Part shown: in pieces, positions 35,901 to 38,884 of the stretch
How the letters are laid out: every line of letters begins with the position of its first letter
Position numbering within the stretch: position 1 is the first letter of the stretch
DNA from: a virus
Taxonomy: Duplodnaviria; Heunggongvirae; Uroviricota; Caudoviricetes
DNA: 38,884 nt
Virus record (IMG/VR): IMGVR_UViG_2728369182_000009
Direction: 5' to 3' (one strand)
Program-made: the position numbers

Positions 35901-38884
35901 GCTTTGATACAGCATCATTCACTATCTGAACTAATTCTGAATTAAGAGAGCGGCCATTGGATTTGGCTCGCTGTTTTAGTTTTTCCTTTAATTCGTAAGG
36001 TAGCCGCAGATTAAATTGCGGGTCATCTCTTCCCATTCTTGATGCCTCGCTTTTGTGAGTGGATCGGCATCTTATTATCTGCTGATTGCATCCTCAATAA
36101 GACCACGGTGGTCGTATTTTTTTGATTAATAATGCATCACTGCGGCAATGCTGCGGCGATTCCTTGTATCTGGAGCAAATTAAATGACAGACATTACAGC
36201 CAATGTTGTAGTGAGCATGCCTTCGCAACTCTTCACTATGGCGCGTTCTTTTAAAGCCGTAGCTAATGGCAAAATTTATATCGGTAAAATTGACACTGAC
36301 CCGGTAAATCCTGATAACCAGATTCAGGTCTATGTTGAGAACGAAGATGGTTCTCACGTTCCTGTTGCACAGCCAATCGTCATCAATGCCGCTGGGTATC
36401 CAGTATATAACGGACAGATTGCCAAATTCGTAACTGTGCAAGGCCATTCTATGGCTGTTTATGATGCATGTGGTGCGCAGCAGTTCTATTTTCCAAATGT
36501 GCTGAAGTATGACCCGGATCAGTTAAGGCAGGAGTTAGCAAGTTCAGGTGATGATCTTGGAGATGCATTAATAGCAGTAAAACAACCATTCACCTTGTCA
36601 ATAAGAAGGACGCAGCATCAAAAAAATGCCGAGCACATTAGTGTTAGTGATTTTGGTGCAAAAGGAGACGGCATAACAGATGATACTGTAGCAATTCAAA
36701 ATGCTATTAATGCAGTACCAGAAGGGGCTATACTTGGATTTTATGGTGGTGAATTTGTTTTTGATAAGGTTGAATTGCTTAAGCCAATAACATTGGTTGG
36801 TGATGCAACGTTAATTCACAACGGATTTAGAATAAAATCTAGCAGAATACGATCACTTTTATCTGGTGTTCAGAAATGCAAGGATTACTCCGAGTCTTCA
36901 AGAGCATTTTATTGCTATGCAAATGAAGACCAAAGAGATTATGACGATATTCAGATTTTGTTTAATAGATTTGAAGGTTTCTTTTACTCTACGGCATTTG
37001 TTGCAAAAAACTATTATTTGGAGAATGACCCTAATTCAAGAACTGTCAAAAATACAAAAGTAATAGGATGTACATCAGTTGCTCCTGATTCTGTAAATGC
37101 CGGTCATTTTCAACATATAGGCGTTACAAATGCTGAAACATCACATAACTCAACTTATGGCGGACAAAATGCAACATCATACAACTTCATTAACCAGAAT
37201 GGATTTGTAAGGATTATAGGAAATTATGACCATAACAATAGCTATGGTTCATGTGAGCTTGAGAACTCAATGGTGAGTAACTCAGTCATATCATGTAATA
37301 CGTTTTCGTCATATTTATGGGTGGATGATACAAGCAATGTTACTATTTCTGGAAATACAGTTTCATCAAGGATCAAAGTAACATCGCAAACTGACGATGT
37401 TCATAATATAACCATATCAGCAAATACCACAAAACGGATTACTATAGAGCAATTTGGAGAATCTCCGACAGGTCTGGTATATGGTGCATTAATTTCCTGT
37501 AACACTATTACTGGCGACAGTGATGGAAGTTCAGACATTTTATGTACGTCACTTGTTACAGGTGAAATTTCATCAAATTATTGTCATGGATCAGAAAAAA
37601 ATATATCAATTGTCCGCCTGGATTCTTCTGATATAACTGTTAGAAACAATAAAGGAAACAAAGGATTACTTACAATAAGTAACGATGGTGGGAGGATAAT
37701 TGAATATGGCAATGATTCTATGGTTCTGTCTGGAAGCATAGATAGCAGACATATACATAATTTATTACAACCAGACACATCGTATTTAGATCTACCGGGG
37801 AAATATCTGCACGGAACTAAATATACTGGCAGTATCCCCCCCGGTTCCACAGGAACTGTATCACTTCAAATACCATCAGGGGCAAGCCTTGTTTTCAGGG
37901 GTGTTTCTATATGGGTTCTAATTAGAGATGTTAGCAATAACAATATATCGTCATTCAGAATTGATGGTTCATATAGAGTTGTTGGTGGAAGTGTTGGTCT
38001 TAGTTTTGCTGATGCTTATTCGAAACTCGGGGTGGATGCAAACTCTATAACAGTGTCAAACAATAACAGCACTTCTGACAATATCAGCATAGCAATTAAA
38101 AACACAGATTCATCAAAAACCCTTCAGGTTACTGTTATGCCGGAGGTTTCAAGCAGGTTAGGTATTGAGGAATAGCATCATATATAATTATTTTAATGTT
38201 AATGCCGCCTTCTTGTTGGCGGCTTATTTGTGAAAATCGAATGAGTTATTTATGATGAATATAGAAGTTGATATAACACCAATTCTTCACGCACTTTGCG
38301 CTGTTGTCGCACAAGTTCTGGTTGGTCTTTTTACCGGAAACTGGGCTTACGGTGCGATAGCCGGTTGTACGTTCTTCATTGCGCGTGAACACACCCAGGC
38401 AGAATATCGCTGGATTGAAATGTTCGGGCATGGCAAGCGTATGAATATGCCGTGGTGGGGTGGTTTTGATCCACGCGTGTGGGATGTAGGAAGCCTTATG
38501 GATTTTTCTTTCCCAATTATCGGATGCTTATTGGTATGGATTCTTGCATCGTAGCGAACACATAATTACCGATGAAACAAAACTGAGACACACAAAGCTT
38601 TGCACTGGATTGCAAGGCTTTGTGATCTTCGATAGTGGTTAAGGTGGATCACTCCACCTTTTCATCAAGCCAATCCGCCCACCACTGCATCATTTCTCTG
38701 CGCTTAACGTAGTTGATGCATCACTATCACCCTGTAATGGCTTATTACTGGTTTGCAGACAGGTAGGCATGAACATATGCCTGCGCATGAAGATGGAACT
38801 AGTCCGGATGCGATATTTTTGGTGATCACGTACATCATCAACGAAGTGCGTTATGGTGAGTTTGATGACTACCCGCTGAAGTGA

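Follow-up and report, generated by a model that had tools for sequence, protein, structure and literature searches.

The protein encoded at 36184..38175 of IMG/VR record IMGVR_UViG_2728369182_000009 is almost certainly a modular tailspike, with a P22-type anchor and a swapped receptor-binding domain (RBD), from a P22-like (Lederbergvirus-type) temperate podovirus. The exchanged RBD probably cleaves the K7 capsule of Escherichia coli, and we assign this explanation as a whole a probability of about 60%. The window analyzed is the full 38,884-nt stretch of DNA; features lie on its + strand unless indicated. The mosaic itself adds little, because modular tailspikes are textbook knowledge and the exact protein has already been deposited and named. 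What the analysis adds is a specific prediction of the target, the K7 capsule, for an RBP subtype that was left as a multi-serogroup exception in a survey (PMC10408124).

The 663-aa product, taken from the ORF list, is covered end to end by PHROG 20231, 'tail protein' (E = 3e-255, profile search). A 100% identical gene is present in four complete E. coli genomes, where it is labelled 'phage tailspike protein' in RefSeq, so the mosaic is of a known kind; full-length copies of the gene occur in ten complete E. coli genomes and near-identical entries in the protein database number in the dozens. Nucleotides 1-25000 of the window resemble Kapi1, CUS-3 and relatives, and the window is a P22-like/lambdoid mosaic prophage. 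As in P22-type phages, the tailspike gene ends the virion module, adjoins immI mnt and lies near the attachment site. In E. coli LD67-1, which carries the 100% identical gene, the RefSeq order is gp10, tail needle, ejection proteins, an Arc-family gene, tailspike, a small hypothetical gene and dacD, which is a chromosomal gene. The neighbor at 35785..36036 (- strand; Pfam Arc and Repressor_Mnt), 'Arc family DNA-binding protein' in RefSeq, is an Mnt-type repressor gene of the immI region, located upstream of the tailspike gene as in P22. On the other side, a consensus scan found a terminator-like hairpin (38204..38223, GCCGCC-loop-GGCGGC with a T-rich tail) that starts 29 nt past the tailspike stop codon. 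It is followed in the ORF list by a gene for a small predicted membrane protein of 100 aa (38252..38554). The product of this gene matched PHROG 1443, 'unknown' (E = 2.7e-55), and gave no match in Pfam and NCBIfam searches; its homologue in phiv142-3 is Orf5, encoded next after orf6.

The head-binding domain, which is the virion anchor, occupies aa 1-115 (36184..36528). PF09008 spans aa 1-113 (E = 4.4e-66, 220.7 bits against a cut-off of 24), and the anchor DNA is 85-92% identical to that of many P22-like phages, including CUS-3, HK620 and Sf6. A preliminary description of the window, which had proposed the chimera with its P22-type anchor and AT-rich RBD at these positions, had likeness to P22 gp9 ending at residue 115. 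PDB chains of gp9 did align with aa 2-117 and then stop, but the joint proved to lie at aa 151/152. The intervening linker or neck (aa 116-151, 36529..36636), common to some P22-type tailspikes, is colinear in Sf6 gp14 and in the tailspike of the SJC33 prophage and is missing from the gp9 alignment; the anchor module includes this 36-residue linker. In the PDB sequence search Sf6 gp14 aligned with aa 1-218 and nothing aligned past about aa 240. A characterized tailspike colinear over the full length, which the description had named as the finding that would speak against a chimera, was looked for and none was found.

Structure prediction, proposed earlier as a check, yielded a confident model in which the RBD is a right-handed parallel beta-helix (aa about 162-516, 36667..37731), as in P22-type tailspikes. 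It is followed by a predicted C-terminal beta-sandwich (aa about 534-656, 37783..38151), delimited by secondary structure and pLDDT in the AF2 model. By comparison with other tailspikes, the sandwich may have a role in trimer formation or stability; the model is of a monomer, and the tailspike is presumably a homotrimer. The RBD had also been called pectate-lyase-like, and PF12708 (pectate-lyase-like) is the sole other significant Pfam match. That family match is confined to the cap (aa 152-209, profile positions 2-63 of 213), and no GH28 or PF12708 match was found over the catalytic helix. The motif [11 protein letters not shown] begins at aa 158. The RBD family profile aligned to PDB GH28 and GH55 chains at the cap motif alone, as did single-sequence and profile PDB searches for a solved homologue of the catalytic part. 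With PF12708 at the cap only and NCBIfam rhamnogalacturonidase far under its cut-off (19 bits against 500), GH28 membership was dropped. An 'eliminase' or K5-lyase lead, taken from the label of the EC.W1-9 copy (which is frameshifted near its 3' end), was backed by no test here and was also dropped. End_N_terminal scored 19.1 bits on the tailspike, under its cut-off of 26.3, and phmmer and profile searches gave no match to the catalytic parts of 2x3h or 3gv* and no endosialidase or K5-lyase homology.

Gene nt 448-1992 are 98.6-98.8% identical to phiv142-3 orf6 and to EC.W1-9, both of which have another N-terminus. By blastn and sliding identity, the shared segment is a mobile cassette common to Uetakevirus prophages (36636..38496; 98.0-98.2% over 1861 nt to EC.W1-9 and phiv142-3), with identity rising from ~0.5 to 0.98 at 36640 and falling to 0.57 after 38500. 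This agrees with the modular swap put forward before: a block 98% identical to a Uetakevirus tail-fiber gene stands behind an unrelated anchor. Since the block runs from 36636 to about 38500, the cassette takes in the RBD, the terminator hairpin and the 5' part of the next ORF (its first ~245 nt). The swapped block reaches beyond the gene, past the stop codon and terminator. The shift in composition after the anchor, also described earlier, was confirmed: GC is 0.44 in the anchor and 0.36 in 36636-38175, compared to 0.465 in the whole window, and third-position GC is 0.417 in the anchor and 0.246 in the RBD. Because the RBD is equally AT-rich in phiv142-3 (0.363 vs 0.468 in the anchor), it is foreign to both backbones (cassette 0.36, both phage backbones 0.47).

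The joint was placed by a three-way DNA alignment with the P22-type tailspike of the SJC33 prophage, which is 87% identical over aa 1-157 and has an unrelated RBD. A stretch of about 20 nt, ATTAGTxTTxxTGATTTTG (coding for I-S-x-x-D-F), occurs in the window, in phiv142-3 orf6 and in the SJC33 tailspike; the window matches SJC33 on its left and phiv142-3 on its right. As the parent switches inside this stretch, the joint is at aa 151/152 (nt 36636), in the first strand of the beta-helix cap, with a crossover microhomology zone at 36637..36654 (I-S-V-S-D-F, aa 152-157). The 'boundary sequences' of CUS-3 were rejected as the recombination site; they are upstream of the gene and not at the joint. 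We are highly confident that P22-like and Uetakevirus (epsilon15-like) prophages have traded this cassette.

When 1.84 billion representative proteins were searched exhaustively (E <= 1e-30), the RBD matched no more than 34 clusters. About 15 relatives are full-length (34-62% identity), the closest distinct ones being Logan or metagenome proteins, and at least five kinds of N-terminal anchor were found among family members: T7-fibre, P22 head-binding, TSP1/Gp66, Mtd_N and tail-collar. Named phages with relatives include fBC-Eco01 (52%), St11Ph5 (47%), several Aeromonas phages (48-50%) and Vectreviruses, and minor tail proteins of Arthrobacter phages match the RBD core at 36-47%. The putative catalytic core is unusually conserved, with 36-52% identity in Aeromonas and even Arthrobacter phage tail proteins. 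Residues H308, Q310, Y325, Y333, N334, D349, N352, Y354, E358, E360, N361, W379, D381 and D382 are kept in at least 80% of 32 homologues (identity down to 22%). There is no Lys or Arg among the residues kept to this extent. The conserved residues group on four consecutive rungs (37096..37329), which, judging from their conservation, probably form the catalytic site. In the Sf6, HK620 and P22 tailspikes the active-site carboxylates lie on neighboring rungs, and by analogy the site here would be of the glycoside-hydrolase type with carboxylates so placed. The RBD is probably an enzyme and, given activity, the conservation of D349, E358, E360, D381 and D382 tips the balance toward a hydrolase rather than a lyase.

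The polysaccharide target had been regarded as not inferable. This holds for the sequence alone, but the capsule loci of the carriers point to K7. In the carrier Ecol_881 the kps order is yghD, kpsM, six serotype-specific genes, kpsT and kpsSCUDEF; the specific genes encode a galactosyltransferase-related protein, a CgeB-family protein, WecB, WecC, a 920-aa glycosyltransferase and a DUF6270 protein. The RBD is present in exactly 37 of 5426 complete E. coli genomes and the 8.4-kb specific region of Ecol_881 in 56. This locus was found in 21 of the 37 RBD carriers and in 35 of the 5389 other genomes (odds ratio 200, Fisher P = 3e-34, phylogeny ignored). The P22-anchored gene was accompanied by the locus in 10/10 complete genomes and the Uetakevirus-anchored form in 16 of 32; five genomes contain both anchor forms, all five with the locus. 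Carriage thus follows capsule type over O type, the exceptions being 16 Uetakevirus-anchored carriers.

The locus was typed against the kTYPr catalogue, in which K7 is among the clusters with kpsM and kpsT rearranged (PMC13171606). According to its supplement, K7_9 and K106_9 are both 920 aa and 90.8% identical; genes 10-13 are 100% identical in K7 and K106, gene 10 encoding a 417-aa UDP-ManNAc-dehydrogenase-type protein and gene 13 encoding 330 aa; and gene 7 of K106 encodes a 253-aa GT-A protein (PMC13171606). In lengths and order the carriers' locus is consistent with these descriptions (gene 9, 920 aa; gene 10, 417/418 aa; gene 13, 330 aa; kpsM/kpsT rearranged). Six of the 56 locus genomes are 97% variants in which the DUF6270 end is missing. 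In strain D2, one of the six, kpsT and kpsS are separated by a GT-A gene of 253 aa that matches K106 gene 7, and the six were accordingly assigned to K106. By elimination of K106, the other 50, which include every RBD carrier with the locus, most likely have the K7 genotype, a rare group-2 capsule locus present in 50 of 5426 genomes. The RBD is absent from all six K106 genomes. The wecB and wecC genes indicate that the polymer of the K7 locus contains ManNAcA. The K7 repeat, said to come from work by Tsui et al. in 1982, is reportedly ->3)-beta-D-ManNAcA-(1->4)-beta-D-Glc-(1->, O-acetylated; a 3-linked uronic acid of this kind would bar beta-elimination, so a hydrolase fits. On genotype, the K7 capsule is the probable target of the RBD.

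The K7 region is missing in the 16 exceptional carriers, and in the three of these that were inspected the K loci are unrelated to one another: RS571 has a group-3 type with rhamnose genes, KN13-4 a HAD-hydrolase/acetyltransferase type and strain ST648 a GT29/TPR type. The idea that the K7-negative carriers share a second K locus was rejected, the RS571 type occurring among the carriers only in RS571 and, as a 93% variant, in 98203. A kpsM remnant with IS5 in RS571 was uninformative as a relic of the K7 locus (84% identity to K7-type kpsM). Strain ST648 has GlcA-G and GlcC proteins identical to those of K7-positive Ecol_881, and the Uetakevirus copy lies ~620 kb from kps in both, while the two diverge from sslE through the gsp genes to kps. 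Replacement of the K locus by recombination within one clone would produce such a difference, and the capsule of the K7-negative carriers has plausibly been switched after lysogeny. Fourteen of the 16 belong to one orf6 allele class (99.5%, same bit score), a pattern that clonal inheritance could produce.

That single allele class suggests clonal spread and could also mean that the K7 link is a by-product of population structure, a few multidrug-resistant clones being K7 by chance and carrying the prophages, with something else as the receptor. Complete genomes are a biased sample, and the association statistics ignore phylogeny. However, the P22-anchored prophage sits at four or more chromosomal locations (sbcB/dacD, gal-tol, cys-pts-gltX and yfd-ypd-glk), so these lysogenizations were independent, and over three or more O-serogroups it always accompanies K7. 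Moreover, two unrelated phage types with the same RBD occur together in five K7 hosts, and the K7 locus is also found in unrelated backgrounds (ATCC 8739, an ST131 strain and the O2:H1 strain HM670). We regard a by-product as unlikely.

A wider glycan, such as enterobacterial common antigen (ECA), colanic acid or an LPS core type, with K7 as one good substrate or a correlate, would account for the K7-negative half of the Uetakevirus-anchored carriers, whose K loci are diverse. The tailspike is matched over aa 1-445 by PHROG 8280 ('colanic acid degradation'), and UDP-ManNAcA is made through K7-locus wecB and wecC, paralogues of ECA genes. ECA also contains beta-ManNAcA-(1->4)-hexosamine. St11Ph5, which carries an RBD homologue, infects rough mutants weakly (PMC6393563). 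We nevertheless consider a target of this breadth quite unlikely, and K7 itself the better candidate.

An O-antigen target is the default for RBPs of Lederbergvirus and Uetakevirus (PMC10408124), and the tailspike might be an O-antigen-specific endoglycosidase like those of P22, Sf6 and HK620, with the serogroups of carriers mixed by O-antigen switching after lysogeny. In three hosts the P22-anchored prophage sits between sbcB and dacD, only about 17 kb from gnd and the O-antigen cluster, a region hot for recombination. The O1 and O2/O50 backbones are similar and rhamnose-rich, which would suit such a target. The O clusters of P22-anchored carriers differ, however (O83 in LD67-1, O1 in Ecol_881, O2/O50 in SFAD3), so O-antigen is not the common factor, and it was rejected as the RBD target on these clusters. 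A 100% identical gene is shared by the O83 host, whose cluster is without rhamnose genes, and O1 hosts, and what stays constant across the integration contexts, of which there are four or more, is the K locus, not the O locus. Published work adds O5, O51 and O102 to the range: in a 2023 survey the phiv142-3 RBP subtype turned up in prophages of strains with O1, O5, O51 or O102, and a common receptor, for instance a K antigen, was suggested (PMC10408124). The phiv142-3 host is O2 (PMC7724020). Resistant mutants of the St11Ph5 host have an unchanged LPS ladder (PMC6393563), which lends independent support to the view that this RBD family need not target O-antigen. We therefore consider an O-antigen target very unlikely.

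Deletion of orf6 in DE142 led to poorer growth in serum and iron-poor medium and to fewer iutA transcripts (PMC7724020), but a main role as a lysogen fitness factor in iron acquisition or serum growth, and not as a virion RBP, is most improbable: the RBD is fused to complete virion-anchor domains in two phage genera, the gene belongs to the late structural operon and is followed by a terminator of its own, the predicted fold is that of depolymerase tailspikes, and the modest deletion phenotype is more likely an indirect effect than the primary function.

In the mechanism that we favor, crossover inside the short ISxxDF-coding stretch at the helix start would have joined the cassette to the anchor. 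Six trimeric spikes would be held on the P22-type tail through aa 1-151 (head-binding domain and linker), leaving aa 152-663 (beta-helix and beta-sandwich) to bind and most likely cleave a host surface polysaccharide. The substrate would most likely be the group-2 K7 capsular polysaccharide, not O-antigen, and the chemistry hydrolysis by the carboxylates E358/E360, D381/D382 and D349. Cleavage of the K7 capsule would let the virion descend until its needle and ejection proteins could act at the outer membrane.

In a literature search of limited extent we found no sequenced K7-specific phage or depolymerase. We tentatively propose, at somewhat less than even odds, that the cassette is the first sequence-defined E. 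coli K7 depolymerase, moving between two unrelated temperate podovirus genera through recombination at its [12 protein letters not shown] cap motif, and that its core may mark a glycanase family for ManNAc(A)-containing polymers. The K7 genotype is found among multidrug-resistant extraintestinal lineages, for example ST648. If the prediction is true, the RBD could serve directly as a K7 depolymerase, whether to type capsules, to retarget phages or tailocins, or against virulence, and K7 would be the first substrate for this beta-helix family.

Among known systems, orf6 of the Uetakevirus phiv142-3 (709 aa, 'putative tail fiber') has the same RBD cassette, the two differing over 513 aa at 21 nt and 8 aa positions, and in both phiv142-3 and EC.W1-9 the downstream terminator, the small ORF and the low GC are all as in the window. 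Their N-terminal ~197 aa form an epsilon15/T7-fibre-type anchor, whereas here there is a P22 head-binding domain with linker. RefSeq calls the 709-aa form 'glycosyl hydrolase family 28-related protein'; the draft-genome contigs that encode this form or the 663-aa tailspike number in the hundreds. The 945-aa tail fiber of St11Ph5 and those of fBC-Eco01, Vectrevirus and Aeromonas phages share this RBD family (47-52% identity across the entire RBD), and in model-based Foldseek comparisons the St11Ph5 fiber and its relatives resemble the RBD with TM of 0.72 / 0.86. St11Ph5 infection seems independent of O-antigen; these fibers have other anchors and belong to other phage types, and at such identity their specificities are presumably different. 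With the A-module of AlgE4 (2pyg, a mannuronan C5-epimerase) and the K5 lyase KflA (2x3h) the N-terminal cap alone aligns, and the conserved Asp, Glu, His and Tyr residues here form another pattern. Sf6 gp14 endorhamnosidase, HK620 and P22 gp9 have no sequence likeness to the RBD past aa ~218-240, and theirs are O-antigen-specific enzymes, in contrast to a tailspike whose carriage does not follow O type. The closest architectural precedent for the predicted K7 spike is CUS-3, the prophage of E. coli RS218 with a K1-specific endosialidase tailspike. CUS-3 is likewise P22-like, has a P22-type anchor (90% nt identity over nt 1-359) and is capsule-specific, not O-specific. Also shared is an accessory gene right after the tailspike gene, the capsule-modifying neuO in CUS-3 and the gene for the conserved 100-aa membrane protein in the window. 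CUS-3 differs in its catalytic module, an endosialidase annotated from experiment and without sequence relation to the beta-helix found here, acting on K1 where the target here is probably K7.

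Five hosts, all of the K7 genotype (Ecol_881, IR53017, CUVET19-970, SCZE5 and ECJXMCRH7), are double lysogens. Each carries the same RBD twice, once on a P22-type anchor and once on a Uetakevirus-type anchor, and the presence of both copies in one host is a direct opportunity for exchange of the cassette. In three complete genomes, SCZE5, ECJXMCRH7 and XH993, IS1A has inserted into the gene for the P22-anchored tailspike (NZ_CP051222.1 1578132-1580900, NZ_CP067342.1 1538418-1541186 and NZ_CP019361.1 1466160-1468928), from which we conclude that the prophage is decaying in these strains. 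The copy in the Uetakevirus prophage EC.W1-9 (L001 5418-7546) has a frameshift near the 3' end of the gene and is annotated as two items, an 'eliminase' and a small hypothetical protein; our searches found no support for the name 'eliminase'.

The putative catalytic core of the RBD (aa ~262-510, window 36967-37713) shares ~48-50% identity with tail proteins of Aeromonas phages and 36-47% with minor tail proteins from phages of Arthrobacter, an actinobacterium. Judged by sequence identity, conservation across phyla is unusually high here for the enzyme core of a tailspike.

In three hosts (L004, NZ_CP061185.1 2853000-2900000; L005; and L008) the integrated prophage is flanked by sbcB and dacD. 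Only ~17 kb separates it from gnd and the O-antigen cluster, and it sits inside the stretch that is usually swapped out in O-antigen switching; the O types of all three differ (O83, O1 and O2/O50). In RS571 (NZ_CP034389.1; L010 38372-39726 and L011), an RBD carrier without the K7 locus, a truncated kpsM pseudogene beside yghD is followed by IS5 and then by a complete group-3-type kps locus, an arrangement that looks like the footprint of capsule-locus replacement. When Ecol_881 (L009) was compared with strain ST648 (L013), which also lacks the K7 locus, the Glc proteins were identical but the proteins from sslE via gsp to kps differed. These differences bound a probable recombinational swap of the K locus in one clonal background.

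The 121-aa product of window 35127-35492 (+; PHROG 1365, function 'unknown'), in the immI-side accessory region, contains an H-E-C-A-H motif of the HExxH type, which suggests a small metallopeptidase-like protein. The ORF at 34607-35143 (-; PHROG 6067, 'unknown') has a lipoprotein-type signal, MKKSLLIIPLLLAGC, and lies with the ejection-protein gene on one side and the mnt region on the other, the place held by sieA in P22. Given this location and signal, it is possibly a superinfection-exclusion lipoprotein.

A conserved 100-aa predicted membrane protein (window 38252-38554, +; PHROG 1443, 'unknown'), which had no match in Pfam or NCBIfam, follows the tailspike in P22-like and Uetakevirus prophages alike, and the exchanged cassette takes in the first ~245 nt of its gene. 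Since P22-like phages keep surface-modifying or exclusion genes in this slot, which in CUS-3 is occupied by neuO, the 100-aa protein may by analogy be a conversion or exclusion factor.
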